Assembly (NCBI RefSeq): GCF_000012285.1
Contig: NC_007181.1
Coordinates: 1,920,001 to 1,952,000, forward strand
Direction: 5' to 3'
Source of the DNA: Sulfolobus acidocaldarius DSM 639
GTDB lineage: Archaea > Thermoproteota > Thermoprotei_A > Sulfolobales > Sulfolobaceae
Length of the DNA stretch: 32,000 nt
Positions 1 to 18,009 of this stretch are shown here, in pieces (positions within the stretch are counted from its first letter, which is position 1; every line of letters begins with the position of its first letter). The position numbers and the translations under genes were made by a program. The notes below the pieces were generated by a model, which was not told the DNA's origin, made no database searches, and saw only the letters and a program-made list of their open reading frames with translations.

Positions 1-485
1 GTACACTTTTTCACAACTCCTTGAACTGGATCAAAGAACCTGTTACCATAGGGGCAGCCATAAATGCAGTATTTACAACCTATGCATTTGTTATAGTCGA
101 CAAGGACTATACCGTCTTCAACTCTCTTGAAAGTTGCCCCCACTGGACATACTGGTACACAAGGGGCATTCATACAGTGGAAGCAGTTTATTGGTATATT
201 ATAAACCTTAGTTTGGGGCCAATTCCCCACTTCAACGTTTAGCACTCTCAGCCAGAACATTACGTCTAGGTCTCCGTAAGGGTTAAGGTCAGGTAATGGT
301 CCGAACATACCTGATGTGTTCCACTCTTTACATGACATCTGGCAACCTGCACAGCCAAAGCACTTATTTAAATCCGTTATTATTGCAAAGTTCTTAGATG
401 GTTTAAACGGTAACCTATATTCAACTCCGTTTTGATACATGTCTAGGGTTATTTGTTGGGGTTGAGTACTATTTGTGGAGGACAT
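1..485 (-). CDS. 4Fe-4S ferredoxin-type beta (electron-transfer) subunit of a Psr/Sre/Dms-family molybdoenzyme; the 3' end runs off the window
   Basis: Absent from the ORF track because it is truncated. My minus-strand translation from the ATG (complement of 483-485) reads [56 protein letters not shown]...[21 protein letters not shown]...[22 protein letters not shown]. These are CxxCxxCxxxC(P) cluster motifs typical of PsrB/NrfC/DmsB. A GAGGTGA SD (complement of 492-498) overlaps the alpha stop codon, 7-8 nt before this ATG. Confidence 0.85.
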
Positions 486-496
486 ATTATTTCACC

Positions 497-3400
497 TCAT
501 GGGGAAACTTGTTCTGATGCATAACCATACCTCAACTTATAATTACCAATTACGTAACCGTTTTGGGCTAAAGAGCCAGGGGATACAAAGCTCCATATTT
601 CTGTGTTCTGCATTGAGTTAGCATTGAAACGTAGATAGGGTATATCAACTGCTTGTGCAAAGGCAGGTGTAACTGGGGAATTGCTTACACTTATTTGTCC
701 ACCTATCTGAGAGACTATTGTGCTTATTATATCCTGGTTACTGAAGTCCTGTCCCATATAAATGAAAGTACTTGAGGACACACTGACCTTATTTGTGTTA
801 GCCTTTCCGACTATCTTTATCCTTGAATCATGCCATGCTGTCTGTCCTGTTATAGGGTCTAAGTTTAATATGGGAAATGCATTGTCCACGTTAGGGTCTA
901 ATGCTCCTCCTCTAGAGGGAGGCATATATACAATATTAGCCCAGTTATTCAACACACTGTACTTCACCTGAGGAGAGTCCTGAGTTTGGCTCCTGAAACC
1001 TGGTAATGCCTGAGAGGATACTACCACCCATGCAGAACCTGGTCTAGTCGCCTCGTCTAGGAACACTAATGCAGTGAGCTGAGTTGTTAGTCCCCCACTC
1101 TTGGGCTCGTTCATAGCCTGGAAAGTGACAAAATCTCCATTATTTATACCCATTGACTGAACATAGGGGTCTGCTGAACTCAGGACCATTGGGGTATAGG
1201 GTATAATAGCTGTTAACCACGGAGTAGTATAAGACCAGGAGTGATATGTTCTATCATGTCTCCTTACAAAGAATGTCAACGGATACTGGGAAAGGTCTAT
1301 ACCATCTTGAGTAATATCAGACTTCCATGTGGGAGGCGGGTAATACCCTCCAAAAGGTTTGAAGTAATCCAATATGTTATTCCTGAGAGCACTACCGTAA
1401 CTATCATTAGGCAGTGTGGATGGAACGAGGAACTTAGAGTTGTTTGTTAACTTGTAATAATAGTAGTACGCAGCGTTATAACCTGTCCATTTTCCAGCTG
1501 CAGCAAGTCTAAATCTCTGCAAATACTCAAGATATATTCTGTGAATATATGGTAACCCAACGTTACCATAACCTCCTGGCATGTAAGCTCCCCATCCTCT
1601 AAAGTAGAACATATTGACATTTCTCATGTATCTTATTGACGGTGGAAGTACGTATACTGCGCCTCCCTTACCTACCTTTACTACTCCTGGATTTATGTCA
1701 TTTAATGTCATTTTTCCGGCTGCGAAGTTATTTATTATACTTTGTAGCAGGTTCTGGAGTAATGGCTGGAACTGTACTGGTAATCTGAAGTAATCCTCAA
1801 TTCCGCCATTTCTGTTACTTGCACCTATGGTGTAAGTCGTTGCAGTAGAGAACGTTGAACCGCTAGGCACTTGAGAGGTAATTTGGCTTATGACTGTACT
1901 TTGGTCAGAGCCATTTGGAACAAATGAGGCATATAGCTTAAGCTGTTGGGGATTTGGAGTTTGCGCTTCAGCCTCATTTTTCAATATGTATTCAAAGTTT
2001 TTGCCATATCCCGCTATCAAAGTCCCTGATTTTAGGATGTAAATTCCTGTGGATATTAAGCCTGGTTGACCCTGGGAAAATATTTGTTGCCCTGTAACGG
2101 GATCATGTATGGTGACTGGGCTAACAAGTGGTAGACCTGTTACCGGATCCTGAGTAGTATAGTGTGGGTTGTTAGTGGGACTAATTGATAAGTTAGGATT
2201 GGATTTTTGGTTTGGATACCCTCTAACTAACCATAGGAGTGTAAGTAGAAAATCACCAGCACTTAGTACAGGGTATAGAGATGGAAGTGAAGGCCAATTT
2301 AAGGAATCAGAGGGTCCATTTGGCAAACTGGTAGGTCTATCAAAAGTTGAGTGAAAACCGTATACCTCTAGGAATGATAAGTCGGGAATAACTAAATCTA
2401 CAACATTATCGTTCTCGTGCATAAAGAGGTCAATAGTTGTAGTAAATGGTATAATATAGTTTCCATTCGAGTCTGTCTCTGTAACCTTTTGCAATAAATC
2501 ACTTAATGTGTAAGCGTTATTCCAATATGGTGCGGTCAAATACCACATCATTGCTTGGATATTATAAGGTATTATAGCCTTATTGAAGTACTTATTCATC
2601 AAATACGCTGTATAAGCTACTGCTGAAATTGATCTCTGTGTAGTAAGGGGTAATTCCCAACTATAGCCACGGTCAACCAGTAAAGGTCTACCTGTTTTAT
2701 AAATTACTAAGTCGTCTGGACCATCTGGGAACCCATAGGGACCTGCGGGAACCACTGACACTTTGGTGATTTCAACGGTTCCGTCATTATGTATTAACTC
2801 GTTCTTGAGAAAACCAGCCCTACCACCAGCTGGGGGCTTTACGCCCAAGGATGCAAGATCAGGATCTATTGATGGGGTATTAGCCAAAGGATGTGGAGGT
2901 ACTCCATGACCGGGGAAGTAGTGAGGGTATGGATACTTATACCCGTCAGCCCCTGGATTGTCCCAGGCACCTAACATTAATACTAAATAATAAGCTGAAG
3001 CTGCAGATTGGAATCCGTTTGCATGTGCAGCTAGCCCTCTCATAAAGTAAATGGAAACAGGTCTACCTGTGATAGACTCATGATATCTACCTAGGTAATC
3101 GACCCACTTTACAGGTTGTTGAATAGACTTCTGAAATGCAACAACTGCTAGTTCATTTGCGATCCTAACTACAGTGTACTCCGGTATTCCAGTAAGATTA
3201 GAAACATTTATGGCACCGTATTGAGCCGTCTGATCTGGTGAGGTATAGGGATCATAGTTCATTAACTCAGCCCTCAGAAGTTCAAACCCTGTTGTAACAG
3301 TCAAGGTTATGGTATTACTGCTACCGGGTGATGCAGGAACAGTTACTTGAATTGCAGGAACTTTTATCATTTGACCATTTCTCAGTCTATAGGAGACTTG

Positions 3401-4855
3401 AACTATATTACTGATCATACTTGAAGGTAACTCATCTAGGGTCAAGATGGGCATGACACCGTTTTGCCATGGTATATCAACATAGGAGTAAACATTACCA
3501 TCACTTCCTAACACAGCCTCCAGCCATTTCGAAGCAGGGAAAGTGAATGAAACAGTACTGCCTGAGGACGTTGTTGCAGTAATCTTCTGTGATGTGGAAT
3601 AGAGGCTGTTTTTCACTGGCATCCTAACATGTAAACCTGTATTATTACTCGCGTTAGGGTCTGAGGGGTCTAATGGGTCTCCATACTGAGGATTGGGATT
3701 TAGTATTACCAGCCATGACAAATTAGTATAATACCTTAAGAACTCCTCGTCTATATGAGGGAAATTGGCGGTATCTGGTATTTCACCAAATTGAGGAAGA
3801 GTTACCACCTGACCGTTAGGTGCAACAGTCTGGAAAAGCAGTTGTCCTGTCCCGCTGTAAGAGGGAGAAACTTGTTGTAAGGTAATGGGATTTAAGACTG
3901 TCTTACCATTAGAAACCTTATATACGTAAAAGTGGAAATCTACCAAGACCCTTATCCATCCCATGAACAAGGCTCCATCTGTAGCCGGATTTACATATAG
4001 GTGCTCATCCGAGACACTGTAGAAGCCAAATCTCTCAGGGGCTATAGTTAGGACTTTTCCTCCATTTTCCCTTATCCTAGCTATAATTCTCCTCATCCAA
4101 TTAGGGAAGTGATCCCCAGCAAGACCGGCTAAAATGAAGTATTGGGCTCTCGTCTCATCAGGTCCTGCATATTCCCACACTGGGGCACCAGTAACGTAAA
4201 CTCCTGCTGAGTAGACATTCATTGAGCAAAATCCTCCATGTGCACCTGAATTCGCAGTACCAAAGTTACCAGCAAAGAAACCTGCTGTTATTCCAGGGAT
4301 TAACTGATCCCTCCCTGTAAATAGGACAAATGAATGGGGATTAGTTTCCCTAATCTTCAACAGACCAGGAAAGTTACCTATACCTAAACTTCCCGGGTTC
4401 AAACCTAACTTGGACCAAGAGTTCGCATTGGCACCATTCACAAGGATATCATAAGCAGTATCGTAGTCAATGGCAATCCATTTACCTGACCCTCTTGGTC
4501 CAGCCCTAAGTAGAGGATATCTTAACCTTGAAGGAACGAAATAGTAGTAGACATCAGCTGCTCCTCTAGGACAAACTCCGCCATCATTTATGTGCCAACC
4601 AATAGTCCCAGTAACGAACCTAGGATATCCCTCTGGAGTTCTAGTTACCTGAATTGCACATCTACCTAAACACTGGAAACAGTTCGTGTACACTATTTCG
4701 TCAGAGGGATAGTTCAGGGTGTAGCTAGTTGTCTCGGCAATGGGTCTAAATATTTTATCCACAACAGAAGGAGTGCTGAGGAAAACTGCAGTACCTAAAC
4801 CAGCAAATCCACTTATTTTTAGAAAGTCTCTCCTACTTAGCTTTAATTGACTCAT
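497..4855 (-). CDS. Tat-exported molybdopterin (bis-MGD) oxidoreductase catalytic alpha subunit, unusually large at 1452 aa
   Basis: The N-terminus [26 protein letters not shown] is a consensus twin-arginine signal (SRRxFLK). It is followed by the N-terminal [4Fe-4S] motif CFQCLGRC...GGVCPRG (Cx2Cx3C...C) of the Psr/Phs/Ttr/Arr clade. A candidate Mo-ligand context is AHGGFCSMN. Conserved-looking MGD-domain blocks include [13 protein letters not shown] and [17 protein letters not shown] near the C-terminus. One uninterrupted ORF. Confidence 0.85.
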
Positions 4856-5058
4856 TAATTAAATTTTTAATAAAGTTTTTTTAAGTATTCACTTCAGTTT
4901 GAAGATATGACTGAATATTCATATTTACCATATTAGTTCATAGCCACAACCACGATAAATTTTTTTGAACAATAAGCTCACACACAATTTATCATTATTT
5001 TTTGATAAAAGTTATAGTAGTATAAATATTTAAGATTAAGTGCTTACAATTTAAAATA
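4856..5058. promoter_or_regulatory. Divergent promoter region between the alpha gene and the wHTH-led operon
   Basis: 203-bp, very AT-rich spacer. A TATA-like TATAAATATTTAAG (5021-5034) is centred about 32 nt upstream of ATG 5059. An A-run, CTTAAAAAAAC on the minus strand (about 4874-4886), lies about 25 nt upstream of the alpha ATG (4855). Both geometries suggest leaderless or short-leader mRNAs. The region also holds an 8-bp palindrome GAATATTC (4913-4920) and a 6-bp inverted repeat TTCAGT/ACTGAA (4893-4898 / 4910-4915). Confidence 0.4.
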
Positions 5059-5688
5059 ATGATAAGATTAGAACCGAATGACATACTAGTGTTGGAGGAG
5101 TTAATTTTATACATTCAGCTCACTTCATACCGTTTCTCCAAGCTTACAGGGATATCAAATGCAACGGCGTGGAGGACATTCAACAGACTAGTAGGATTAG
5201 GCTTAGTAAAGAGGGAGGATAAAAGGGGCTTTTCAATAACGGCTAGGGGTGCTATAATACTCTACTTAAACACGTCTAAGGGCAATGTGAGGAGAAGATG
5301 TTTGTCGGTCTTAAAGAAGTTGTGGAACTATGATGGTGATGAAGAGAAACTCAAGTATTTCCTAGAGGATGTAGATAAGGTTTTGAAGAGTATGAACCTA
5401 TCACCGTTTGTGATATGTTTTAATCAGCCTGTAACTATTGCCACAATGTTATACAATAAACAGGATGAGCTAAGGGAGGAGACGAAAGAGGTTATTGCAA
5501 ATATTTTGATAAACTTTTTCCCGTCAATAGATCTGAGGAACGGATGTAAGGCAATTATCTCATATGACAATAATGGAAAACCTTATGTACTTGCAGCAAA
5601 GTGCAAGAGAGAAGGTATAAAATTAAGGTATTATTGTCCCGAGATTTCAAAGTACCTCAGTGTCACAAATGCTGAATTACCTCAATGA
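5059..5688 (+). CDS. Winged-helix (MarR/TrmB-like) DNA-binding protein with a C-terminal Cys-containing domain
   Basis: The ORF has a TATA box at the correct distance. The N-terminal segment LTSYRFSKLTGISNATAWRTFNRLVGLGLVKRE reads as helix-turn-helix plus wing. I do not recognise the C-terminal half. Confidence 0.6.
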   Translation: MIRLEPNDILVLEELILYIQLTSYRFSKLTGISNATAWRTFNRLVGLGLVKREDKRGFSITARGAIILYLNTSKGNVRRRCLSVLKKLWNYDGDEEKLKYFLEDVDKVLKSMNLSPFVICFNQPVTIATMLYNKQDELREETKEVIANILINFFPSIDLRNGCKAIISYDNNGKPYVLAAKCKREGIKLRYYCPEISKYLSVTNAELPQ

Positions 5689-6532
5689 GTACTTGGAACT
5701 AGGTTTCAATCCCTCAACTATTTTAGGAACATGCGAACTGAGTGAACAATTTGGGATTTATCATGGAGAGAGAGGTGAAGAGGTAAGCCTATTTTTCATT
5801 AAGTCAAGTAGACCAATGGAGAAAAGGGGAAAAATAAATATACACTACTTCTCTCCAAAATTTGAAGTCATAATAGAGAGAAGCGTAAAGCTAAATGGAG
5901 AGGCTCTGGTCTCGGCATCCACACTGCGTATTGTTGATATAACTTTTCCCCCTGAGTCTAAGATATATGACGGTCTGTTAAGAGGTCTGGTGTTAAATCC
6001 CATAGTGGTTAAGGGAGCTGTAGATAACCTTTACTTCAAAAGAGAGGACATCTTATTTGGATGGGGCTTAGGTGAGGGTATTGCGAAGCTTGGAAAGTTT
6101 GAACCCAGTGATTATTGCATAATACAGCCTCTAGGTGAGTTAGCATTTATTTCTCTCTACAACAGGTTTGTGATGGGGAGACTTAATTTAGATGACTCCT
6201 ATGTTAGGAGAGAAAAGGAGAAGATTCTGGAAATTAGTTCAAAAGTTTACAGGGAACTCGGTGAGGTGGTAAGAGAGAACGAGAATAACCTTACGTATGT
6301 CGAGGATATTGGCATGAACCAGGACTCTGTTAAGAAATTGAAAACATTGAAGATAAAAACTATCATAGTTCATGATAAAAATATTCTAGAGCTAACAAAG
6401 AACTTCACAAAAAATCCTTTTGCAAGTCCATTTTCAGTGGTCATATTAGGAAATAAGATTGGTGTAGACAGGGTAGTTGATAAAGCCCTTAGCCTTGGCT
6501 TAAGCGTTTTCAGATCAAGTTTTATTAGTTAA
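5660..6532 (+). CDS. Hypothetical protein of about 287-290 aa with no recognised domain
   Basis: Long ORF overlapping the upstream gene by 29 nt. ATG 5669 (MLNYLNE...) is an alternative start. Same strand and tight packing imply co-transcription. Confidence 0.55.
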   Translation: MSQMLNYLNEYLELGFNPSTILGTCELSEQFGIYHGERGEEVSLFFIKSSRPMEKRGKINIHYFSPKFEVIIERSVKLNGEALVSASTLRIVDITFPPESKIYDGLLRGLVLNPIVVKGAVDNLYFKREDILFGWGLGEGIAKLGKFEPSDYCIIQPLGELAFISLYNRFVMGRLNLDDSYVRREKEKILEISSKVYRELGEVVRENENNLTYVEDIGMNQDSVKKLKTLKIKTIIVHDKNILELTKNFTKNPFASPFSVVILGNKIGVDRVVDKALSLGLSVFRSSFIS

Positions 6533-6569
6533 AAAATTATTTTTAACTTTATAATGGTGATCATAAATT

Positions 6570-7334
6570 GTGGACATGGAAGGAGAAGAGGATCCAATAT
6601 ATGAAGCTGAAAGGTTAATTGAGAAAGGGGATTATCCTGAGGCATTAAATGTCTTGGGTAATTTAAGCTTGCCTGAAGCTTATATCTTGAGGAGCAAAGC
6701 CTATATCGAGATGGGAAAAAGTGAAGAGGCTATAAGAGAACTTAAAGAGGGCATAAACAGATTTCCCTATGCCCACTATATGTATTATGAGTTAGCCTTG
6801 CTGTATTTCAATCATAATGACCTTGTTAATGCATTGGACGAGGTGAATAATGCTCTTTCAATTCTACCTTATTCTTATGATTATAATAAATTAAAGGCTA
6901 GGATACTGTTTGAAATGCAGGAATATGAACAAGCTTTTGATGTTCTCACCTATGTGATAAAGATGAAGCCTGATGATGTTGAAAGTAGGTTATTACGGGC
7001 TCAATGTTTTTACTTAACAGGAAAATTCCTAGATGCCCTTAAGGAGATAAATAGGGCTTTAGAATACAACAACAAGGACGAAACACTACACACCCTCAAG
7101 GGTAAGATCTATCTGGAGACCCATTTCTACAAGTTGGCACTAAGTGAGTTCAAGATATCTGTATCCATAAGACCCACCGCTGAAAATTATTATCTTCTTG
7201 CCTTCTCAGAGTATATGACAGGAGAATGTGGAAATGCCATAAGTGATTCTGAGAAGGCTTTAAGCCTTGATCCCAATAACAACGTGATAAGGGAGTTCTA
7301 TGAGTCCTTAAGAAATATGTGTGGACAGAAATAA
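6570..7334 (+). CDS. TPR-repeat protein (about 6 repeats)
   Basis: Repeated 34-aa TPR-like units, for example AYILRSKAYIEMGKSEEAIRELKEGI, YYELALLYFNHNDLVNALDEVNNALSILP, LLRAQCFYLTGKFLDALKEINRALEYN and YYLLAFSEYMTGECGNAISDSEKALSLDPNN. The track start is a GTG at 6570. ATG 6576 sits about 25 nt after TTTATAATGG (6547-6556), so it is a plausible leaderless start. Confidence 0.8.
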   Translation: MDMEGEEDPIYEAERLIEKGDYPEALNVLGNLSLPEAYILRSKAYIEMGKSEEAIRELKEGINRFPYAHYMYYELALLYFNHNDLVNALDEVNNALSILPYSYDYNKLKARILFEMQEYEQAFDVLTYVIKMKPDDVESRLLRAQCFYLTGKFLDALKEINRALEYNNKDETLHTLKGKIYLETHFYKLALSEFKISVSIRPTAENYYLLAFSEYMTGECGNAISDSEKALSLDPNNNVIREFYESLRNMCGQK

Positions 7335-8916
7335 TTTCAGTTTTTTGAAAAGAATCATTATTTTCCGGTTAAGCGTCTCTGAAACTAGATATTGTTTGTC
7401 GATGATAAGACTAAATGTTGGGCTAATAGTATCTAAGAAGGCTAGAGAAATACTAGGAGATGAACTTTTAGTTAGTATATTTAATGATGGAGAGATTGCG
7501 TATGTAGCTGAATATGGGGACTTCATCGAGAAAGATCTCAAAGAGAATAGCGTAAATGCATTAGTTGTAGTTAGTGAGAGCGAAAACAGGAATATCAAGG
7601 ACTTTTTGAGTAACATAGACGAGTTAACCAATATACACCCTTTGTCCGTGGAAGTGTTAGACATTAACTGGCTACAGTCAAGGGAGCAAGCAAAAGCCCT
7701 GATATTAGCTTACATAAGCAAAGCTTCCCTCTCTTTCCTTGCCCGGAGAGTTCAACCACTACGAAACAAGAACTTAACCAGGAGATCACTCTTAAGGAGA
7801 AAACTGTACTATTATAAACCCTACCCTGTACTTGCCCAGGAGATCTCCTTTGAAAGGGAGATGAAATACCTCTCATCACTTTGTGAATTAGTGGTGAAGA
7901 CCCCAGAGGGTCCACAGGTCTCCGATCCTGATAAGTGTACTTCCTGTGGATTTTGCTCAGGTATGTCGTTCTTAGGTTACCTGGAAATGCCTAACTTCAG
8001 TACAGACCAGGTCATTGCATTTATTAACACACTGAGTAAGTATGCCCCTACAGATAAGCCCGGTATAGTCCTGATCACGTGCAACAGGATTACAGATATA
8101 CCTAAACTGAAAGAGGCATACATATATCCTCTTATATCTCCCTGTGTCTCATCAGTTCACGACTCTTTCCTGACAGCAATCCTGGTCTCTGGTTTTTACC
8201 CCGTGCTATACTCCCCTGACAGCTCTTGTGAACTGAGAGATAGGGCAAAGATAAGGGCAGAAGTTGCTATCAAGAGATTCCCTGGAACCGAAATACGATT
8301 CCCTTATGTGGAGGATCTAAATGAATTAGAGGACGTGTTGAGGAATGTTGCCAGCAATTCCCTAATGTTGACCAGGAACGAGATACCTCAGGACATAGTT
8401 TTATCGAGAAGTAGAAGGAGGAATTTACTATTGTGGTCGATTTCTCAGTTCAGATCACAGTCAAAGCTGAATGAGGAAGACGAGATACCTGGAGTATTTA
8501 AGGTGGTTGTAGATCCTGATAAGTGCGTTCTTTGTGGAGTTTGTGTAAGATCTTGTCAAATGTTGGTATTTGACATTAAAAATACCTCGAGCAGTACAAC
8601 GCTGTATCACGATTTATCATATTGCATAGGTTCGCAGAGGTGTGTCAGAAATTGTCCAGAGGGGGCGATAACACTAGTGGGATCTGTTAAAATAAAGGAA
8701 CTGGGTAACAGGTCGGTGGTCTCGGCAACAATAGGTAAGTGCAAGTACTGTGGGAAGCCACTAGATTCAATAAAGGTGAAAAACAGAGTAAGTGAGATTT
8801 TGATGAGTTCAGGAATAAATGACATTGAAGACTATGTTGACGTGTGTAACGATTGCAAACAGAAGAACATGAGTAAAAAGTGGGTTGAAAAGACATTGGG
8901 GTTGAGCAAAAAATGA
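7321..8916 (+). CDS. Cytoplasmic Fe-S protein with an HdrA-C-terminal/MvhD(FlpD)-like region, a 2x[4Fe-4S] ferredoxin domain and a C-terminal CxxC...CxxC zinc-ribbon-like motif
   Basis: Motifs: PDKCTSCGFCSG; GIVLITCNR...ISPCVSSVHDSFLTAILVSGFYPVLYSPDSSCE (by eye aligns with the MvhD pattern xxCNWC...CSGRxxPxxxLxAFxxGADGVxVxGC); DPDKCVLCGVCVRSCQ; YCIGSQRCVRNCPEGA; GKCKYCGKPL...VCNDCKQK. The true start is probably ATG 7402 (MIRLNVGLIV...), because the first 27 codons overlap the TPR gene end. Confidence 0.7.
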   Translation: MDRNNFSFLKRIIIFRLSVSETRYCLSMIRLNVGLIVSKKAREILGDELLVSIFNDGEIAYVAEYGDFIEKDLKENSVNALVVVSESENRNIKDFLSNIDELTNIHPLSVEVLDINWLQSREQAKALILAYISKASLSFLARRVQPLRNKNLTRRSLLRRKLYYYKPYPVLAQEISFEREMKYLSSLCELVVKTPEGPQVSDPDKCTSCGFCSGMSFLGYLEMPNFSTDQVIAFINTLSKYAPTDKPGIVLITCNRITDIPKLKEAYIYPLISPCVSSVHDSFLTAILVSGFYPVLYSPDSSCELRDRAKIRAEVAIKRFPGTEIRFPYVEDLNELEDVLRNVASNSLMLTRNEIPQDIVLSRSRRRNLLLWSISQFRSQSKLNEEDEIPGVFKVVVDPDKCVLCGVCVRSCQMLVFDIKNTSSSTTLYHDLSYCIGSQRCVRNCPEGAITLVGSVKIKELGNRSVVSATIGKCKYCGKPLDSIKVKNRVSEILMSSGINDIEDYVDVCNDCKQKNMSKKWVEKTLGLSKK

Positions 8917-9455
8917 ACTTCGTTATAACTTTGCTTAACACGTTGATAAGAGCCCCTAATTTAAAGGAAATCCTGAAGCAAATCGAGGGATCTGATTATT
9001 TCAAGGTCGAAATTAATCCTACAAACATAACTGTGAACTCTGATGCTTATCTCCTAGAGGAGCTCTCCTATAGGGGGAGGATATTCATAGCTACGAATGT
9101 CCCGTCTAAATTAGCCTATGAGATCTTAAACAGGTTTAACCTGGACAGTTTCATTACCAGAGTAGTCTCTGCTGAAGATGTAGGCATGTTTACCACAAAT
9201 CCTAAATTTTTTGAATATTTATACAGAATGACTGGAATACAGAGGGGAACAGGTTATTTCATAACTTCCAATACCCTCTCAATAAATAATGCAAAGTCAC
9301 ATCAATTTAAGGTGGTCATGATAGACCGTGAGGGCATAAATTCCGTAAACCTGGTGGATGTAATAAAAGTTAAGGACCTTAAGAAGATCGTTGAACTGAC
9401 AGGTAAGAGTTATGTCGACACCAAAATTGGCGATTCGTCATTGAGGTGTAAGTGA
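8913..9455 (+). CDS. HAD-superfamily-like protein with degenerate catalytic motifs (likely a pseudo-enzyme)
   Basis: An ATGA start/stop overlap with the upstream gene (8913-8916) indicates translational coupling. IFIATNVPSKLAYEILNRFNLDSFITRVVSAEDVG...NPKFFEYL...YFITSNTLSINNAKSHQFKVVMID resembles HAD motifs II-IV. Motif I (DxDGTL) reads ITLLNTL, and the motif IV aspartates are S/N. Confidence 0.5.
   Translation: MNFVITLLNTLIRAPNLKEILKQIEGSDYFKVEINPTNITVNSDAYLLEELSYRGRIFIATNVPSKLAYEILNRFNLDSFITRVVSAEDVGMFTTNPKFFEYLYRMTGIQRGTGYFITSNTLSINNAKSHQFKVVMIDREGINSVNLVDVIKVKDLKKIVELTGKSYVDTKIGDSSLRCK
9443..9448 (+). promoter_or_regulatory. Shine-Dalgarno GAGGTG for the TTG-initiated ORF at 9457
   Basis: GAGGTG lies 8 nt upstream of TTG 9457 and inside the end of the preceding gene. 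This matches the Sulfolobales pattern of an SD in front of internal operon genes. Confidence 0.5.
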
Positions 9456-9456
9456 T

Positions 9457-9873
9457 TTGATATCCGACTCAGAAATCGTTGAAATATTTAAGGAGTTGGG
9501 AATGAAGGTAAAGGAGGAAAAACAGCAAGGGTTACACTTTCACGTCAGTATATCTCCACCAACTGCAAACTCCGCCATAGTGTCTATAATAAGACCCACA
9601 GCCTTTTCGAAGTACTATGTGGTGACTATGGCAATAGAGGTTGACCCACCTAAACTGAATAAGAAAGTGTTGAGGGAGATCGGTGTAGAGTTGGCTAGGC
9701 TAAATGTGGAATTTTACGTTATGCCACCAGATAAACCAACTACAATTCAGATTGCTAAGCTATTATATCAAGAGGACTTAAGTAAAAACGAATTAATAAA
9801 CACGGTAACACTTGTGAAGAATGCAGGTTTTATCGTATTTAATATACTTAGTGGAGAAAATATGAATGACTAG
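9457..9873 (+). CDS. Hypothetical 138-aa protein with no recognised domain
   Basis: The ORF has a TTG start preceded by a strong SD and begins 1 nt after the upstream stop, so it is operonic. Confidence 0.6.
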   Translation: MISDSEIVEIFKELGMKVKEEKQQGLHFHVSISPPTANSAIVSIIRPTAFSKYYVVTMAIEVDPPKLNKKVLREIGVELARLNVEFYVMPPDKPTTIQIAKLLYQEDLSKNELINTVTLVKNAGFIVFNILSGENMND

Positions 9874-9930
9874 TAATATCAATAAAATGAAATTAAGGTT
9901 TATTTATTATAATAATTATACTTACACAGG

Positions 9931-10980
9931 ATGGGTCTATTCACTGCACCAGCTCCAGGTACTAATTTTGGAATAAACTCACCACTGTTGCAGATTAACC
10001 AATATCCTGAATGGGATGTAACAGTCGCACTAGCACTCTATTTTACTGGACTTGCAGGAATGTTGATGGCTATAACTTCAATCCTAGAGTTCACTGGGAG
10101 ATATCCAAGTTTGGTGAAGAGAAACTCAATCTTCGTATTTATATTTGCTGTCCTATCCCTGGTAGCATTTGATATACATTTAGGAGTACCTATAAGAGGG
10201 TTCTATGCCCCTGCAAATGCATTCGCGGCTCTTTTGAATTCGTGGATGGCAAGAGGTATTGAATTCGTGGGAGGACTGCTAGTTTTCTCATTGATTTTTA
10301 TGGCTATTAAGGTACTTGATGTGAAAAATGTTGTTGCCACATGGGTGTTTGCAATTTTAGGGCTCGTGGCAGGCATTTTTTCCACGACTTATAGTGGTTT
10401 TGAACTATCTGCTGCGACTGGTGTACCTTTCTGGAATAATGGAGGGCTTCCTGCACTTTTCTTAGCGTCAGGTATAGTAGGTGGTAGTGCATGGAGTTAT
10501 ATAATAAGTCTAGTGACGAAGGGCGAGGAAGGAATAAGGGCTAGAAGGCTTACTGCAAAACTTTTAGCATACTCTGCAGTAGCTGAGCTAGCAACGTGGT
10601 TCCTCTTCATGGCAAACGTCAATTTCGTTTACGTATTCAACGAAGTAGCCTATAACTACATGATATCAGCAGTAACGTTTGTAATAGACCTAGCATTACT
10701 AGGATTGGCATTTGTAGTGCCTGGTGTAGGTAATCTAATGATGTGGAGAATGTTGAGGAAAACTAGCTCACAATCTCCAAGTCCTTCACCTATTGACTTT
10801 CCTAATTACTTGAAAATAATTATACTGGTCGTCGCAATATTAGCTTTAGTCTCTGGGTTCTTCACCAGGGAGGATATACTTTTCGCCGGTCAATACGCAT
10901 ATCAAGTAGCCCCACTAACGCCATTCCAATATACTAATGGTCAGCCCACACCTATAGGTGCATTTGGGTGGAGAAGTTAG
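9931..10980 (+). CDS. NrfD/PsrC-type polytopic membrane anchor subunit of the molybdoenzyme
   Basis: 349 aa with about 8-9 hydrophobic helices. The N-terminal signature EWDVTVALALYFTGLAGM matches the NrfD-family pattern Wxxx(I/V)AxYxFxxGxxxG. No heme-ligand pattern is obvious. A TATA-like TTTATTTATTATAATAA (about 9899-9915) suggests it may also have its own promoter. Confidence 0.75.
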   Translation: MGLFTAPAPGTNFGINSPLLQINQYPEWDVTVALALYFTGLAGMLMAITSILEFTGRYPSLVKRNSIFVFIFAVLSLVAFDIHLGVPIRGFYAPANAFAALLNSWMARGIEFVGGLLVFSLIFMAIKVLDVKNVVATWVFAILGLVAGIFSTTYSGFELSAATGVPFWNNGGLPALFLASGIVGGSAWSYIISLVTKGEEGIRARRLTAKLLAYSAVAELATWFLFMANVNFVYVFNEVAYNYMISAVTFVIDLALLGLAFVVPGVGNLMMWRMLRKTSSQSPSPSPIDFPNYLKIIILVVAILALVSGFFTREDILFAGQYAYQVAPLTPFQYTNGQPTPIGAFGWRS

Positions 10981-11024
10981 AGAAGGAGAGCGTATAAATA
11001 AAAATATTTCATGATAATTACTTT

Positions 11025-12332
11025 TTATTTTTTCTCCAATTTTTCCAAAGGCACCCTTACGGTATCTACTCCCTTTCTATACCAGATTAGACTAGCTATA
11101 CCACCCATAAGCCATAAACCGAAATTGAGGATTAGATAGTCTAGGAGAGAAAATGATGATGTAACAACAAGAGAAATCCCATAAGCGGCAATTGGAAATA
11201 TCCTTACGAGTCCTATCATGAAAGCCCTTATGTTATTGGGCATTAATACAGGCTCATATAAAGTCCTCACTGCCCAACTAAACTCACTAAATAACATATT
11301 TATAAAGAGAAGAATGTAGAAAATTCCCACATTAAAATTCATTGTGAGTAATACTATCGGTATCATACTTAATGCGCCTCCCATATAGGATATTAAGGAG
11401 AACATTCTAGTATTAATCCTTCTTACAAGAACAGTTGCTATGAAACCTGAAACAGATGCCCCTAAATTGGCTATGAATATTATAAAAGGAGTCTGTGAAC
11501 TTGAAAAATAATAGTCAGCAACAGTAAATGCCATTAAGCCATATGTAAGATATTGTGTAACCCCTATAATAACAAGAAATATGTATCTAGAGATTAAACT
11601 AGTATCATCCTTGACTTGAGTCTGTGTATTAATCTCTCCAATTTCCTTAGCGACCTTATTAGCCTCTCTCTCCGCTTTACTTATATCCCCTTTAGCCATA
11701 AGCCACCTAACAGACTCAGGTAAAAGGAACCTTATTACGATTCCAAATATGATTCCTAGTATCGCAACTAGGGACAAGGCGAGAAGTTCAATCGTAAATG
11801 AGTTTGATAAGCTATAAGTCAGGTAACCTATTAAAGCAGCCACTGTAGCGCCGATATTGTCAAAATTTGGTCCTAGTATTAAGATGCTGTCTCTATAGTT
11901 CAATGGCATCATCTCTGCACTATATGACAACATAATAGGAACCTCACCTTCAACCCCAAATTCCCCAAGTATAATGCCTATTACTATAAGTAAGATATAC
12001 GGAAACTGGGCTAAACTACTGGTGTTGAAACCTGATAGTACAGATGCAAGTATTATCAGAATCGTACCTACCGAGTAAAGGGTCATGGTTATAAAGAACG
12101 TAACCTTTCTCCCTAGTTTTCTATCTGAAAAGAAAGATAGGATTAGGTTTCCTGCTAATGCTGCAAGTGTAGGTGTGAGCAAAAATAAAACGCTATTAAT
12201 GCTGGGATAGATCAATGGGGCTATGGAGGATATAACACCCCACATGAAATAGCCTACCACAACTGACGCGAACATTAGGGAGTGAACTGTAGTCCACTTG
12301 GATGCATCTACTGATTTTACTATTTTTTCCAT
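11025..12332 (-). CDS. MFS transporter, sugar-porter/metabolite:H+ symporter-like
   Basis: 435 aa, about 12 TM helices. Motif A-like FFSDRKLGRKVTF and the sugar-porter signature-like LPESVRWLMAKGDISKAE (PESPRWL type) in the central loop. Confidence 0.8.
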   Translation of the reverse strand: MEKIVKSVDASKWTTVHSLMFASVVVGYFMWGVISSIAPLIYPSINSVLFLLTPTLAALAGNLILSFFSDRKLGRKVTFFITMTLYSVGTILIILASVLSGFNTSSLAQFPYILLIVIGIILGEFGVEGEVPIMLSYSAEMMPLNYRDSILILGPNFDNIGATVAALIGYLTYSLSNSFTIELLALSLVAILGIIFGIVIRFLLPESVRWLMAKGDISKAEREANKVAKEIGEINTQTQVKDDTSLISRYIFLVIIGVTQYLTYGLMAFTVADYYFSSSQTPFIIFIANLGASVSGFIATVLVRRINTRMFSLISYMGGALSMIPIVLLTMNFNVGIFYILLFINMLFSEFSWAVRTLYEPVLMPNNIRAFMIGLVRIFPIAAYGISLVVTSSFSLLDYLILNFGLWLMGGIASLIWYRKGVDTVRVPLEKLEKK

Positions 12333-14269: not shown

Positions 14270-14725
14270 GTGGTGGGTAGGAACATGGAGATTACAATGG
14301 ATGAAAGGCTTCAGGTAATTGTCACCATCGCTAAGGTAAATAGGGCTTTTCAAAGAGAACTCAACAAAAAGTTAGCTAAGCTAAATATATCTTACCTTGA
14401 TTACCTCGTTTTAAGAGGAATAAAGGATGGTCCGAAACCCATGGTTGAGCTGGCGAACAAGTACTTGGTTACCCAAGCTTCAATAACCTCTACAGTTGAT
14501 AAACTGGAGGACATGGGTTTAGTGAGAAGGGAGAGGAGTCAAGATGATAGAAGGCTAGTGTTGATATATATAACAGAGAAAGGAAAAGGAGTTATGGAGG
14601 AGGGGTTTAGAATATATAGAGAATTATCAGAGGAAATTATGAAAGAGTTGAAAGATGATCAAGTGAAGTCCCTATTGGAGGGTCTTAATATCCTCCTCTC
14701 TAGACTAGAAAACATAAAAAGTTAG
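14270..14725 (+). CDS. MarR-family transcriptional regulator
   Basis: LDYLVLRGIKDGPKPMVELANKYLVTQASITSTVDKLEDMGLVRRERSQDDRRLVLIYITEKGK is a canonical MarR wHTH with a DRR wing. The likely true start is ATG 14285, preceded by GGTGGTGGG (SD-like, 14267-14275). Confidence 0.85.
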   Translation: MVGRNMEITMDERLQVIVTIAKVNRAFQRELNKKLAKLNISYLDYLVLRGIKDGPKPMVELANKYLVTQASITSTVDKLEDMGLVRRERSQDDRRLVLIYITEKGKGVMEEGFRIYRELSEEIMKELKDDQVKSLLEGLNILLSRLENIKS

Positions 14726-14769
14726 TACTTTTTATGAAGGACTTTACTAAAAGAGCATTTAACTTAAGA

Positions 14770-15960
14770 TTATCTAGTTATAGGTTTATCGCCTTCTCTA
14801 TTCTTAACAACAATATTTGCGTAAATACTATGAAAATATACAATGGAGAGAATGCTTAGAGCAGAACAAAGGAAATACTCAGAATTTGGAGACAATACTT
14901 GGAACATTGTATTACCCAGTGGAAAACCTATTAGACTCCCCAATGCAGTTGAAGACTGGGCGAAACCGAATCCACCACTCCTACTCCCGGGCGGTAAAGT
15001 CTTACTAAGTAATGTTAAGATAGAGTTTTGGGCTATACCATTTCCCATCGCCAATAGGACTAGGCTAACATAAGCTAGGATTTGGTTTGAGGGAAATGAG
15101 AGTAAGATATAGGCTATAAATGTTATTGAAAGTCCAATAGTAGTCGCTATCCTTTCCCCTGCCTTCCCTATTATCCTGTATACTAATAGAAATTGGGCTA
15201 CAGCTTGGACTATTCCCACTAATCCTAATACTAATCCTATTTGAGAGGGACCCCAGTTGTAGAAATATCTTCCGTAAAAAGCAAGTGTCCCTTGAAGTAC
15301 AGCAAAGCTTAATGCTATAATAAGTGTTAATGTAAAGAACGAGCTGGACATTCTGAAAATTTCCTTGAGTGAAGCTTGCCTCATGGCAATTTTCTTATTG
15401 TCGTTACTGACCAACAGGTATACTAAAATCAGGTTAAGAAAAGCAAGACCTGCAACTATCAGAAATGTGTTCCTATATCCAAGAGGAGACAGTACACCGC
15501 CAATTACAGGACCAGCGACAAAACCAACTCCAAATGTGCCAGATATTATCCCAATATTACGGGAGTTATCCTTACCTAGTTCAGTGGCATAGGAGAGTAT
15601 AACTGGTAAATTACTTGTCAAGGCTCCTGTTATAAACCTTGCTAAAAGTAAGAGATAGAAGTATGGTGATAAGCCTATTATCAAGTAACCTACAACCTCA
15701 GAGCCTATTCCCAAAGTCAAAATGTTCTTCCTTCCTCTTATATCCGAGAGTCTACTGATATAGGGGGAGAAAACTAACTGGGCTATTGAGTACGTTACTG
15801 TTAATAAGCTATACTCGATTGGAGTAGCTCCCAGCTGTAGAGAGTAATATGGTAGGATTGGAATTATTATCCCGAATCCTACTGAATCTAAGAATGCCGT
15901 CAAGGCTAAGGTAATTAATGTAATTTTTCCATTCATAAAGTGACCTCTCCATGTGATCAT
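14770..15960 (-). CDS. MFS efflux transporter, DHA1 (12-TMS, tetracycline-resistance-like)
   Basis: 396 aa. LDSVGFGIIIPILPYY and motif A SRLSDIRGRKNILTLG. ATG at codon 9 (MNGKITL...) is an alternative start. Confidence 0.85.
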   Translation of the reverse strand: MITWRGHFMNGKITLITLALTAFLDSVGFGIIIPILPYYSLQLGATPIEYSLLTVTYSIAQLVFSPYISRLSDIRGRKNILTLGIGSEVVGYLIIGLSPYFYLLLLARFITGALTSNLPVILSYATELGKDNSRNIGIISGTFGVGFVAGPVIGGVLSPLGYRNTFLIVAGLAFLNLILVYLLVSNDNKKIAMRQASLKEIFRMSSSFFTLTLIIALSFAVLQGTLAFYGRYFYNWGPSQIGLVLGLVGIVQAVAQFLLVYRIIGKAGERIATTIGLSITFIAYILLSFPSNQILAYVSLVLLAMGNGIAQNSILTLLSKTLPPGSRSGGFGFAQSSTALGSLIGFPLGNTMFQVLSPNSEYFLCSALSILSIVYFHSIYANIVVKNREGDKPITR

Positions 15961-17313: not shown

Positions 17314-18009
17314 TCAGAATTTGTTAGAGTTGTCTACGAAAACTTGCATCAATACTTTCCTAATGGCATTCCTTATATGTCTGTCCAGGGCTACCTTCGT
17401 CACCCCATACATTTTGGCTAACTCCTCGAGCTTAGTCTTCTTAGGATAATCAAAGAAACCCATCTTATACGCTGTGTATAGTATCTGTCTCTCTGTAGGT
17501 GTAAGCGATGAGAGGATCATCATCTCACTCTTAACCTCATCCATTTCTACCCTATCAAAATCAAGGTTTTCAACCTCTACATTGATCTTTTTTAGCTCTT
17601 CACTAATTTGGGTCTCCAATTGATCTCTCTTGTTGAATGTGTAGACTTGCCAGTCTTCGATACCATCACTCACAGTAAGATTCGCCACAATAGCGTTACT
17701 GTTCATCATAGCCTTTGTAATTGAGTTCTCAAAGTTCTTAAAGTAGTAAAGTAAGGCTGTCTTACTTGACTTATTCCTATCAACCCTTATGATCTTTATG
17801 TTATTCCTATACTTTCTACTTAACACGTCAATGAAGTCTGTTAGCTGAGTTTTTGTGTTTGAATATAACTCAACTATTTCAAAAACAGAGTTCTTTGCCA
17901 CAAGAGGGAAGAGGTATTTTACATTTGCCGTAACATCATAACCTGATGTCTCCTGTGTCCAACAAGCATCATGTTTAACCCGCATCCTCACCTTGTAAAT
18001 TTGCATCAT
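17314..18009 (-). CDS. HTH_10 (bacterio-opsin-activator-type) transcriptional regulator
   Basis: C-terminal LTPTERQILYTAYKMGFFDYPKKTKLEELAKMYGVTKVALDRHIRNAIRKVL matches the HTH_10 pattern (LTxrQxexLxxAxxxGYFdxPR...LAxxLGxsxxtxxxHLRxAexK). ACTATATATAATAAC on the minus strand lies about 25-38 nt upstream of the ATG. Confidence 0.75.
   Translation of the reverse strand: MMQIYKVRMRVKHDACWTQETSGYDVTANVKYLFPLVAKNSVFEIVELYSNTKTQLTDFIDVLSRKYRNNIKIIRVDRNKSSKTALLYYFKNFENSITKAMMNSNAIVANLTVSDGIEDWQVYTFNKRDQLETQISEELKKINVEVENLDFDRVEMDEVKSEMMILSSLTPTERQILYTAYKMGFFDYPKKTKLEELAKMYGVTKVALDRHIRNAIRKVLMQVFVDNSNKF

Follow-up and report, generated by a model that had tools for sequence, protein, structure and literature searches.

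Gene organization of the locus

The window analyzed is a 32,000-nt stretch of the Sulfolobus acidocaldarius DSM 639 genome, and matches S. acidocaldarius CP046615.1 at 100% identity over 14,855 nt. The genes for the alpha and beta subunits of a putative molybdoenzyme are located on its minus strand. Alpha (positions 497–4855) is an ORF of 1,452 aa. The beta gene runs off the window, with the N-terminal 161 of its 277 aa encoded at 1–485; the complete gene is located at 14371–15204 of locus L001. A Shine-Dalgarno sequence, tGAGGTGA, overlaps the alpha stop codon, 11 nt ahead of the beta ATG. On the other side of alpha, a 203-nt A+T-rich intergenic region (4856–5058), which presumably contains promoters, has TATA-like runs 5' of both flanking ATG codons, as judged by sequence inspection only. 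The divergent genes on the plus strand are those for a winged-helix (wHTH) regulator (g1, 5059–5688), an orphan protein (g2, 5669–6532, 287 aa), a cytoplasmic TPR protein (g3, 6570–7334, 254 aa), an SreD-like polyferredoxin (g4, 7402–8916, 504 aa), a pseudo-HAD protein (g5, 8913–9455, 180 aa), a DUF2299 protein (g6, 9457–9873, 138 aa) and an NrfD/PsrC-type membrane anchor (9931–10980).

The coordinates of alpha, beta and NrfD and the Shine-Dalgarno sequence of beta agree with the initial annotation, as do the ATGA overlap of g4 and g5 at 8913–8916 and the g5-g6 junction, in which GAGGTG at 9443–9448 precedes the g5 stop codon at 9455 and the g6 TTG start codon at 9457. The 29-nt overlap reported for g1 and g2 is obtained when g2 starts at GTG 5660 (290 aa); the ATG at 5669 used by NCBI and the orthologues gives an overlap of 20 nt. 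The 14-nt overlap reported for g3 and g4 is not retained. It was assigned because the longest ORF, which starts at 7321, was taken for g4; homologue alignments and the NCBI call place the start at ATG 7402, leaving a 67-nt gap. The earlier family assignments (weak wHTH, TPR, Fer4, weak HAD_2, NrfD and an unknown 290-aa protein) are reproduced, except that the 138-aa "unknown" is a DUF2299 protein.

Catalytic subunits and chaperone

Alpha has a twin-arginine signal, SRRDFLK. Its FS0 cysteines (C59, C62, C66 and C95) and C210 are invariant in the alignment of homologues, and C210 is aligned with the Mo-ligand Cys173 of Thermus thermophilus PsrA (2vpw), the best PDB match. The homologues across Sulfolobales are 58–80% identical to alpha. 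The next tier consists of the ~1,240-aa Thermoproteales and paralogue forms (31–34% identity), and the third of SoeA-like proteins of ~970 aa. The window alpha, one of the giant alphas of Sulfolobales (1,430–1,460 aa), is enlarged by many insertions, as mapped by alignment. The Pfam molybdopterin models remain below threshold on the window alpha, and PF00384 is carried only by homologues that are 58–70% identical to it. Alpha is assigned to the Psr/Phs/Sre/Soe clade as a Mo/W-bisPGD catalytic subunit, predicted to be exported by Tat.

Beta matches Pfam Fer4_11 (4.6e-14) and the NCBIfam DsrO/DmsB/NrfC/TtrB models (1e-24 to 5e-27), is 79–86% identical across Sulfolobales, and is a four-cluster ferredoxin of the PsrB/DmsB/SreB type. 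The NrfD anchor matches PF03916 (5.9e-13), has about 7–8 hydrophobic segments and is preceded by a 57-nt A+T-rich gap. Its orthologues (47–72% identity) adjoin alpha in every Sulfolobales locus reaching that far, and its relatives in Thermoproteales are 28–32% identical.

The initial annotation found no TorD/NarJ-type chaperone. This is correct for the window itself, but not for the system, because a gene for a 233-aa protein with an above-cut-off match to PF02613 Nitrate_red_del (7.3e-15) lies 360 nt past the left edge of the window (window coordinates −1061 to −360), directly after beta. The implied replacement of such a chaperone by the six-gene module is not supported. The chaperone and g4 genes are overlapping or immediately adjacent in S. 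islandicus, Metallosphaera (L005), L029, Thermoproteus and the Stygiolobus paralogue.

Accessory proteins other than g4

The g1 protein gives weak wHTH matches (TrmB, 1.7e-3, and Lrs14) and is named MarR/HTH protein by NCBI. Its C-terminal domain has three cysteines (C163, C182 and C193) that are shared by all of 14 sequences, and its gene adjoins NrfD/alpha in Sulfolobales and Thermoproteales. It is predicted to be a cluster-specific transcription regulator. The g2 protein has no Pfam, NCBIfam or PDB match, whether its own sequence or a profile is searched. Its orthologues are found in part of Sulfolobales (Aramenus, a Saccharolobus MAG, Metallosphaera with E 1.5e-5 over the full length, and S. 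islandicus with 7e-5), always immediately 3' of g1 with overlapping stop and start codons.

The g3 protein matches Pfam TPR_2 (3e-20) and other TPR models, as well as the NCBIfam MamA and SycD/LcrH-type TPR models; this assignment is generic. The g3 gene adjoins alpha in the giant-alpha loci of Sulfolobales, with the exception of L029. The g5 protein matches HAD_2 (5e-4) and, over its C-terminal half only, TIGR01428 (1e-8). In alignments it has the HAD fold without the catalytic motif-I Asp, and an invariant C-terminal cysteine tail, GDSxLRC. The g6 protein matches DUF2299 (1.2e-35), and its predicted fold is similar to those of T3SS chaperones and YbjN.

Conservation of the cluster

Sulfolobales have at least five different orders of these genes, in all of which g1–g6 and NrfD remain linked to the giant alpha, although the genes flanking the cluster are not conserved between loci. 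S. acidocaldarius and Aramenus share the order g1-g2-TPR-g4-g5-g6-NrfD, divergent from alpha-beta-chaperone. All ten genes are located on one strand in one Saccharolobus MAG. The order in S. islandicus, Metallosphaera, Stygiolobus and Acd1 is g1(g2), NrfD on the minus strand, and TPR-alpha-beta-chaperone-g4-g5-g6, and the TPR gene is inverted in A. copahuensis. In L029, chaperone-g4-g5-TusA-like-DUF2299-TatA-TatC, with MoeA/MobA-like genes, is divergent from NrfD-alpha-beta. The Thermoproteales order is g1-NrfD-alpha-beta-chaperone-g4. The core kept in Thermoproteales and in the Sre-type paralogues consists of the wHTH protein, NrfD, alpha, beta, the chaperone and the Fe-S protein. In loci extending that far, g5 and g6 are present with every giant alpha, g5 always downstream of g4; both are absent from all clusters examined with an alpha of ~1,240 aa or canonical size.

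The window contains the S. acidocaldarius version, in rearranged form, of a cluster of roughly ten genes that is conserved across Sulfolobales. The split layout, which the initial annotation treated as a property of the system, is a local rearrangement common to S. acidocaldarius and Aramenus; in most relatives NrfD is directly upstream of alpha or TPR-alpha. The association of the six genes with the enzyme is upheld, since they or their core move with alpha, beta and NrfD through several independent rearrangements, and they therefore probably belong to its regulation and maturation system. Adjacency confined to one genome, which had been named as evidence against this association, is not what is found: the linkage is conserved across Sulfolobales and partly in Thermoproteales. 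In the loci examined, co-occurrence only with the giant alpha holds for TPR, g5 and g6, but not for the wHTH and Fe-S proteins, which are also present in Thermoproteales. Likewise, the description of the set as undescribed and lineage-specific does not apply to the Fe-S protein and the chaperone, which occupy the SreD and SreE positions, the Fe-S family being widespread, but does apply to TPR, pseudo-HAD, DUF2299 and g2. The first three appear to be additions found only with the giant alpha, and g2 one found in part of Sulfolobales.

The SreD-like polyferredoxin g4

The g4 protein consists, from the N-terminus, of an alpha/beta domain, an SRRxLL motif, a reduced ferredoxin domain, a degenerate MvhD-like domain and a C-terminal part in which alignments locate an RRR motif, a two-cluster ferredoxin domain and a CxxC...CxxC end. 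The top Foldseek matches of its AF2 model (pLDDT 82) are HdrA. A profile search retrieves 533 clusters at E ≤ 1e-10, and the family is widespread in archaea. Distant full-length relatives have an above-threshold PF02662 FlpD/MvhD domain (P0130, 1e-26), and only one of the 26 Sulfolobales sequences matches FlpD (0.024). The HdrA/MvhD-like assignment made earlier is thus right in kind. The internal (S/T)RRx(L/F)(L/F) motif is present in 130 of 140 family representatives. Newly recognized features of the SreD-like family are its Fer4-MvhD-Fer4 architecture and the conserved Tat-like SRRxLL motif inside it.

Six of seven sampled distant g4 contexts adjoin NarJ-like, Tat and Moco-biosynthesis genes; the seventh has no link to them. 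One relative is located inside a mobA-like/moeA/moaA/moaD/moaE/moaC operon, and another is flanked by MobB and a NarJ-like gene, in a stretch that shows no structural genes. In L031, an alpha-beta-NrfD-g4-like-NarJ-like-Tat cluster, with the g4-like gene at the sreD position, lies beside a NiFe hydrogenase. These neighborhoods favor a role of g4 in maturation rather than in enzyme-specific electron input. Against this role, a polyferredoxin would fit just as well as an electron-transfer subunit, and reduction of the radical-SAM enzyme MoaA might be all that the g4-like protein of the Moco operon does.

It is unlikely that g4, perhaps with g5 and g6, is a cytoplasmic partner that gives electrons to, or takes them from, the enzyme or the quinone pool, which is the electron-input option of the initial annotation. 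The Fer4-MvhD-Fer4 architecture, the HdrA fold and the three full CxxCxxCxxxC motifs of most family members are consistent with such electron input, and a legend in the T. tenax paper names sreD an electron transfer protein (PMC3189178). However, the redox chain is probably located outside the membrane, because of the Tat signal of alpha, with which beta travels. NrfD-type anchors, as known from PsrC, hold no cofactor able to connect a cytoplasmic Fe-S protein. In addition, the cysteines of the MvhD domain and several of those of the ferredoxin domains are no longer present in the g4 of Sulfolobales, and some g4 relatives are encoded in Moco operons or beside NarJ-like genes without structural genes.

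Comparison with known systems

The closest known system is apparently SreABCDE, as judged by gene content. The sreABCDE operons of Acidianus ambivalens and Thermoproteus tenax (TTX_0045-0049) have been published, and SreD is described as a "polyferredoxin of unknown function" and, in the T. tenax genome paper, labeled "FeS electron transfer protein" (PMC3189178). The same five gene types are present in the window cluster (the A. ambivalens operon being compared by its published description), and in Thermoproteus the relatives of alpha are accompanied by precisely the same five-gene set. In contrast, the window alpha exceeds the Thermoproteales and paralogue forms by about 200 residues, and as many as five additional genes (g1, g2, TPR, pseudo-HAD and DUF2299) are conserved with it. 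S. acidocaldarius, an obligate aerobe, reportedly lacks sreABC (PMC5127849), and Stygiolobus has both a window-type cluster and a separate Sre-like cluster (L006 and L021). PsrABC shares the FS0 motif, the Mo-ligand cysteine and the anchor type, but the window alpha is nearly twice as long as PsrA, with similarity detectable only over residues 53–310, and PsrABC lacks SreD-like, TPR, HAD-like and DUF2299 partners.

In the periplasmic nitrate reductase system of E. coli, the cytoplasmic polyferredoxin NapF, whose twin-arginine-like motif does not direct export, interacts with NapA before the latter is exported; with NapD, it may be the best functional analogue of g4. Three parts of g4, the N-terminal alpha/beta domain, the MvhD-like domain and the C-terminal CxxC...CxxC, have no counterpart in NapF, in which the RR motif is N-terminal, whereas in g4 it is internal. 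Unlike HdrA, g4 has no FAD/thioredoxin-reductase domain, and the genes that accompany it are those of molybdoenzyme maturation instead of Hdr/Mvh. The g6 protein resembles class I T3SS chaperones in predicted fold and in being encoded in an export-related cluster, but no T3SS is known in archaea, and its putative client would be a Tat substrate.

The automated Metallosphaera label implies that the enzyme is an archaeal SoeABC-type sulfite dehydrogenase with neighbors incidental to a known system, which is distinctly improbable. SoeABC of Allochromatium vinosum has the same three-subunit plan, the nearest relatives outside Thermoproteota include a protein named SoeA by JGI, and SoeAB(C) is reported, by annotation, in all Metallosphaera genomes (PMC7325606). 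However, these SoeA-like relatives cover only 19–24% of alpha in BLAST and, in the alignment, lack residues 2–46, which include the clear Tat signal of the window alpha. Moreover, the accessory genes fit the sre operon layout, and no accessory gene set is known for SoeA-like proteins.

Proposed role of the cluster

Tat exports folded complexes, and g4, possibly with the small proteins, might hitch-hike with alpha-beta as extra exported subunits. The twin-arginine-like motifs of g4 and the Tat genes located after g4-like/NarJ-like genes in L012, L029 and L031 are consistent with this export, which is nevertheless very unlikely: the RR motif of g4 is internal, at a distance of 85–165 residues from the N-terminus, with a conserved domain of confidently predicted fold ahead of it and no hydrophobic h-region after it; NarJ-type partners are cytoplasmic; and the Moco-operon contexts do not suit a structural subunit. 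That the six genes are merely unrelated housekeeping neighbors can be dismissed as highly improbable, although TPR and HAD folds are common and DUF2299 is present in methanogens that presumably lack the alpha enzyme (3cxj), because the synteny persists through the rearranged loci, down to 31% alpha identity and with changing flanks, and the start and stop codons overlap tightly.

It is reasonably probable that the cluster encodes an uncharacterized, membrane-bound, outward-facing Mo/W-bisPGD oxidoreductase, a paralogous offshoot of the Sre/polysulfide-reductase family, with a maturation system of g4 and small proteins. Most likely, these helper proteins prepare the enzyme for export. Transcription would be controlled by g1 with its wHTH and three-cysteine domains, possibly together with g2. 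The NarJ-like chaperone would hold the alpha signal peptide in the cytoplasm during cofactor insertion, and g4 would be a redox-active maturation factor working at the same stage, before export; it could either provide electrons for the insertion of the cofactor or of Fe-S clusters, or dock by way of its internal Tat-like SRRxLL motif. The TPR, pseudo-HAD and DUF2299 proteins may be extra holding or assembly factors for the unusually large alpha. The alpha-beta dimer would then be exported by Tat, dock on NrfD and exchange electrons with caldariellaquinone.

Subunits of the molybdoenzyme

The alpha gene (497-4855, minus strand) encodes a catalytic subunit of 1,452 amino acid residues. The N-terminus of alpha carries a canonical twin-arginine signal, in which R8, R9, F11, L12 and K13 are invariant in nine homologues, and is matched weakly by the Pfam TAT_signal model, at 0.0099, which is under its cut-off. 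C59, C62, C66 and C95 (FS0) and C210 are invariant across nine homologues, down to 37% identity, and match the FS0 cysteines and the Mo-ligand Cys173 of T. thermophilus PsrA (2vpw) in the HMMER alignment. Alpha also matches canonical enzymes of ~970 residues at 1e-97 with HMMER. PF00384, PF01568 and PF04879 give no match to alpha at E<=0.01 in the Pfam scan. PF00384 is present in the alpha homologues P0031 (70% identical) and P0034 (58%), and PF01568 is present in P0036 (30%). These molybdopterin matches are missing because the alpha sequence has diverged and contains insertions, not because the domains are absent. The extra length of alpha, as mapped by alignment, is made up of about ten scattered insertions or loops, with no single added domain.

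The first 161 codons of the beta gene are located at 1-485 on the minus strand, and the full protein consists of 277 residues in L001, the corresponding locus of CP046615.1. Beta is an ordinary four-cluster subunit that is matched by the Fer4_11 and DmsB/DsrO/TtrB models. The NrfD/PsrC anchor (9931-10980, plus strand; 349 residues) is matched by PF03916, and its gene adjoins the alpha gene in relatives. Because alpha has a Tat signal and the FS0 and Mo-ligand cysteines, and is accompanied by this beta subunit and an NrfD anchor, the enzyme is a complex iron-sulfur molybdoenzyme of the Psr/Sre type, with catalytic subunits that face outward. The sequence reveals this class but not the substrate.

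A second, unrelated Mo enzyme gene is located at 17314-20589. It encodes a 725-residue large subunit of the xanthine-dehydrogenase/CoxL type (MoCoBD_1/2, Ald_Xan_dh_C) and is preceded by a divergent HTH_10 regulator. CoxM/CoxS-type genes are not found beside it in the ORF list of the window.

Arrangement of the genes in the window

Over the 14,855 nt shared with L001, the window and CP046615.1 are 100% identical, and exact matches to the alpha protein occur in S. acidocaldarius genomes. The ORF positions given by the initial annotation are confirmed, including those of the seven plus-strand genes at 5059-10980, which encode a wHTH protein (g1), an orphan (g2), a TPR protein (g3), an Fe-S protein (g4), a pseudo-HAD protein (g5), a DUF2299 protein (g6) and NrfD. 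Most of the couplings described between these genes are also real: the SD sequence tGAGGTGA spans the alpha stop codon, g1 overlaps g2, the ATGA at 8913-8916 belongs to both g4 and g5, and GAGGTG at 9443 lies upstream of the TTG start codon of g6, which begins one base past the stop codon of g5. The 14-nt overlap of g3 and g4 is an artefact of taking the longest ORF, which starts at GTG 7321. All g4 homologues align from residue ~28 on, and the start codon assigned by NCBI is ATG 7402, which gives a protein of 504 residues, so that 67 nt lie between g3 and g4.

A bacterial sigma-70 promoter/terminator scan of 4700-11100 gives 20 sites versus 18.4 expected and is uninformative for an archaeon. 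The 57-nt gap upstream of NrfD (9874-9930) is very A+T-rich (TTTATTTATTATAATAATTATAC). It could carry a separate archaeal TATA/BRE promoter, in which case NrfD would be independent of read-through from g1-g6. Elsewhere in the window, the ORF at 22046-23188 (minus strand) contains a perfect 84-bp tandem repeat at 22494-22980 (5.8 copies, 100% matches, TRF score 974), which encodes the 28-residue units (EENTKAIAELRKMT / EENTKAIIELRKQT) of a 380-residue coiled-coil protein. The copies show no divergence at all, which suggests that the array has expanded recently or is still being homogenised.

Chaperone gene outside the window

The initial annotation recognised no TorD/NarJ-type chaperone. None of the six genes g1-g6 encodes one, but the enzyme has such a chaperone just beyond the window edge. 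The gene for a 233-residue NarJ/TorD-type protein is located at 15216-15917 of L001, which corresponds to -1061 to -360 in window coordinates, that is, 11 nt after beta and 360 nt past the edge. The protein matches PF02613 (Nitrate_red_del) with 55.7 bits versus a cut-off of 22.2, and is named TorD/DmsD family chaperone by NCBI. The gene is retained after beta in every locus that reaches that far. The premise that the chaperone is missing therefore falls. The region past the chaperone gene (L001 16037-18616) encodes a 336-residue, N-terminally anchored, S/T-rich protein, which has 265 residues in another strain (L002), and a 490-residue polytopic membrane protein whose C-terminal domain is of the 2x[4Fe-4S] type. 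These two genes are rejected as members of the system, having no counterpart in any related locus.

Conservation of the gene cluster

One genome per GTDB species was scanned with the alpha alignment, which gave 25 loci, and further loci were added by exact look-ups. All window proteins were compared with these loci by tblastn and blastp. The same gene set is found in several orders across Sulfolobales. In S. acidocaldarius and Candidatus Aramenus, the order g1-g2-TPR-g4-g5-g6-NrfD is divergent from alpha-beta-chaperone. In a Saccharolobus MAG (L010), the same ten genes are located on a single strand. Inverting the g1-to-NrfD block of this one-strand layout gives the S. acidocaldarius layout, so the split of the locus is a local rearrangement. 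In S. islandicus, two Metallosphaera species, Stygiolobus, Acd1 and RB850M, NrfD is divergent and directly upstream of the block TPR-alpha-beta-chaperone-g4-g5-g6, which is tight, with overlapping starts and stops; g1 is located nearby, and so is g2 in S. islandicus and Metallosphaera. Acidianus copahuensis has the S. islandicus-type order with TPR inverted.

In Thermoproteus, Vulcanisaeta and Caldivirga, in which alpha has ~1,240 residues and is 31-33% identical, the order g1-NrfD-alpha-beta-chaperone-g4-like is located on one strand. A paralogous second cluster in Stygiolobus (L021) and a Sulfolobaceae MAG (L012) has this Thermoproteales order, followed in L012 by TatA-TatA-TatC. A metagenomic contig (L029; alpha 58% identical) has chaperone-g4-g5-like-TusA-like-DUF2299-TatA-TatC divergent from NrfD-alpha-beta. 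TatA and TatC are located directly beside the accessory genes at 1290-5360 of L029, 16617-18159 of L012 and 10891-12915 of L031, a locus of an archaeal genome, and L029 adds MoeA and a MobA-like gene. These three clusters amount to complete synthesis-to-export cassettes.

The genes on either side of the set show no conservation from locus to locus. Among the loci extending that far, g5 and g6 occur with every alpha of 1,420-1,460 residues and with no shorter form. That the set stays together as a neighbourhood argues for functional linkage, and the six genes g1-g6 probably belong functionally to the molybdoenzyme system. The observations of the initial annotation are largely correct, and its interpretation is supported in part only: the proposed module is real, but it replaces no chaperone, and two components are the counterparts of SreD and SreE, which already have names but are uncharacterised.

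Relation to sulfur reductase

All five gene types of SreABCDE are present in the S. acidocaldarius cluster, but in a different order. The pentacistronic operon of T. tenax is described as "exactly" like the sulfur reductase operon of A. ambivalens (PMC3189178), and a 2021 review gives SreD and SreE as still of unknown function (PMC8551704). The Thermoproteales clusters recovered here have the sreABCDE composition. In L031, a NiFe hydrogenase is followed by Tat-alpha, beta, NrfD, g4-like, NarJ-like, TatC and TatA, in agreement with the order of sreABCDE. Because of this composition and this order, g4 is placed in the SreD position and the chaperone outside the window in the SreE position.

Within the Sre family, the giant-alpha cluster is probably a Sulfolobales paralogue. 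Its alpha is 31-34% identical to those of the Sre-like forms, and this low identity is consistent with the reported absence of sreABC from S. acidocaldarius, based on a KEGG-style annotation (PMC5127849). The window contains no hydrogenase gene. The Metallosphaera genes have been labelled SoeAB(C) by automated annotation (PMC7325606). SoeABC has a cytoplasm-facing SoeA without a Tat signal, whereas alpha has this signal, and SoeA-like relatives lack alpha residues 2-46. No paper on the giant enzyme or its extra genes was found in a literature search, which is not proof that the cluster is undescribed.

Accessory proteins other than g4

The protein encoded by g1 (5059-5688) consists of a wHTH domain and a C-terminal domain, in which C163, C182 and C193 are invariant from Sulfolobales to Thermoproteales. 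This arrangement suggests that g1 may be a metal-, Fe-S- or thiol/redox-sensing regulator dedicated to these clusters. The g2 gene is always located downstream of g1, and no relative of known function is detected for its product with either the single sequence or a profile. A PurM/HypE-like identity, considered from the C-terminal sequence of g2, was dropped, because it is supported neither by Pfam (5 members) nor by a PDB profile search. The g3 product is a plain TPR protein.

Only the C-terminal half of g5 (8913-9455) matches HAD models, under their cut-offs. HAD motif I, DxDx(T/V), is not conserved in g5, and its position is variable (T/L/N/D/E) in nine orthologues. The protein and its orthologues in loci L003-L011 and L028 end with the tail (M/I)GDSxLRC(T), which is invariant in nine of nine Sulfolobales orthologues and in which the cysteine is penultimate or terminal. 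In L029, a TusA-like gene encoding 69 residues is located between the g5-like gene and the DUF2299 gene. The cysteine tail and this neighbour hint at a possible sulfur-relay or thiol-based function of g5. The g6 product is a DUF2299 protein (PF10061; 122.7 bits versus a cut-off of 22.8), which may have a fold like that of T3SS class I chaperones and the YbjN family. A word-index search for DUF2299 homologues returned the query alone, and the single-sequence structure model of g6 is unusable (pLDDT 46).

SreD-like polyferredoxin g4

The AlphaFold model of g4, built from a 26-sequence alignment, has a pLDDT of 82 and a pTM of 0.81. The best PDB matches of this model in Foldseek are HdrA chains and HycF, with TM values that are low, as expected for a multidomain protein (0.18 for HdrA). 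An HdrA-type FAD/thioredoxin-reductase domain is not detected, because no Pyr_redox/FAD family is found in Pfam scans of 26 g4-family members. When the g4 profile is compared with 1.84 billion representatives, 533 clusters are detected at E<=1e-10, many of them full-length (430-560 residues). Pfam analysis of ten of the 533 shows the layout Fer4, FlpD/MvhD, Fer4, and a Candidatus Terraquivivens protein matches PF02662 at 1e-26. PF02662 is undetected in g4 itself and above threshold in full-length relatives, and the homologous region of g4 is predicted by the model to be folded alpha/beta. In Sulfolobales g4, the first ferredoxin motif has partly decayed, and so have the cysteines of the MvhD-like domain; both are kept in Thermoproteales.

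The SreD-like layout consists of an N-terminal alpha/beta domain, an internal SRRxLL, Fer4, MvhD, Fer4 and CxxC...CxxC. The C-terminal CxxC...CxxC is present in 139 of 140 family representatives. The internal motif (S/T)RRx(L/F)(L/F), which is near the Tat consensus, is present in 130 of the 140, ~57 residues before the first CxxCxxCxxxC. The RR motif sites of g4 (7402-8916) are residues 125-131 and 336-345; a second RRR motif lies ahead of the second ferredoxin domain in Sulfolobales and Thermoproteales members. The RR motif is not a signal peptide, because the N-terminal domain ahead of it is folded with high confidence and no hydrophobic stretch comes after it.

The gene contexts of seven distant relatives were sampled. 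The first has MobB, g4-like and NarJ-like genes in this order; MoeA and a MobA-like gene lie close by, and the 15 kb contain no structural genes. The second is the Sre-like cluster with Tat genes (L031). In the third, the g4-like gene is located within a mobA-like, moeA, moaA, moaD, moaE, moaC/B operon beside TatC and modABC, and in the fourth it is convergent with a NarJ-like gene. The fifth has MoeA, MobA-like, MobB and g4-like genes, with a NarJ-like gene 3.5 kb further, and the sixth has NrfD, alpha, beta, NarJ-like, HTH and g4-like genes. The remaining one of the seven shows no link of this kind. In addition, the chaperone gene overlaps g4 or directly adjoins it in S. islandicus, Metallosphaera (L005), Thermoproteus, L029 and the paralogous Stygiolobus cluster. 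These contexts and this abutment are better explained if g4 is a general maturation factor than if it is a subunit in the electron chain of one enzyme.

Possible roles of the accessory genes

The genes and their conservation, the Tat signal and cofactor-binding residues of alpha, the chaperone gene, and the family and contexts of g4 are all shown by the sequences. From them we infer that g1, perhaps with g2, would regulate the cluster, and that g4 and the NarJ-like chaperone would work jointly in the cytoplasm while the cofactor and Fe-S clusters are loaded, ahead of Tat export. TPR, pseudo-HAD and DUF2299, which occur with the enlarged alpha only, may be extra holding or assembly factors. NrfD would anchor the exported alpha-beta and couple it to caldariellaquinone.

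The main alternative is that g4 is an electron-transfer partner of the enzyme. Against this role, alpha-beta face outward, the NrfD anchor is without a cofactor, the clusters of g4 are decayed in Sulfolobales, and g4 relatives occur in Moco-operon contexts. For the six genes as a whole, a role in maturation rather than in electron transfer is about as likely as not. A broader proposal for maturation is tentative and somewhat doubtful at present: SreD-like polyferredoxins may be widespread in archaea as an unrecognised factor in the maturation of Tat-exported Mo/W-bisPGD enzymes, working with a NarJ/TorD-type chaperone, possibly docking by signal-peptide mimicry and providing reducing power for cofactor/Fe-S insertion. 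Sulfolobales would add TPR, the Cys-tailed pseudo-HAD and DUF2299, with its possible T3SS-chaperone fold, for the giant alpha.

Implications

To our knowledge, almost all that is understood of the maturation and Tat export of molybdoenzymes comes from E. coli (NarJ, TorD, DmsD, NapD/F, FdhD/E). The locus and its relatives provide a ten-gene set that can be dissected in the genetically tractable S. acidocaldarius. The enzyme is found in every Sulfolobales genus sampled, and bears on the incomplete map of sulfur and metal respiration of thermoacidophiles. SreD and SreE have reportedly been listed as "function unknown" since 2003. The comparative evidence places the SreD-type polyferredoxin with cofactor and export genes, not with the electron chain of one enzyme, and the conserved internal twin-arginine-like motif of the g4 family offers something specific to test. 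Of greatest interest is this picture of the SreD-like family, with its internal Tat-like motif and its links to NarJ, Tat and Moco genes, which gives a testable hypothesis for an "unknown function" that is twenty years old.
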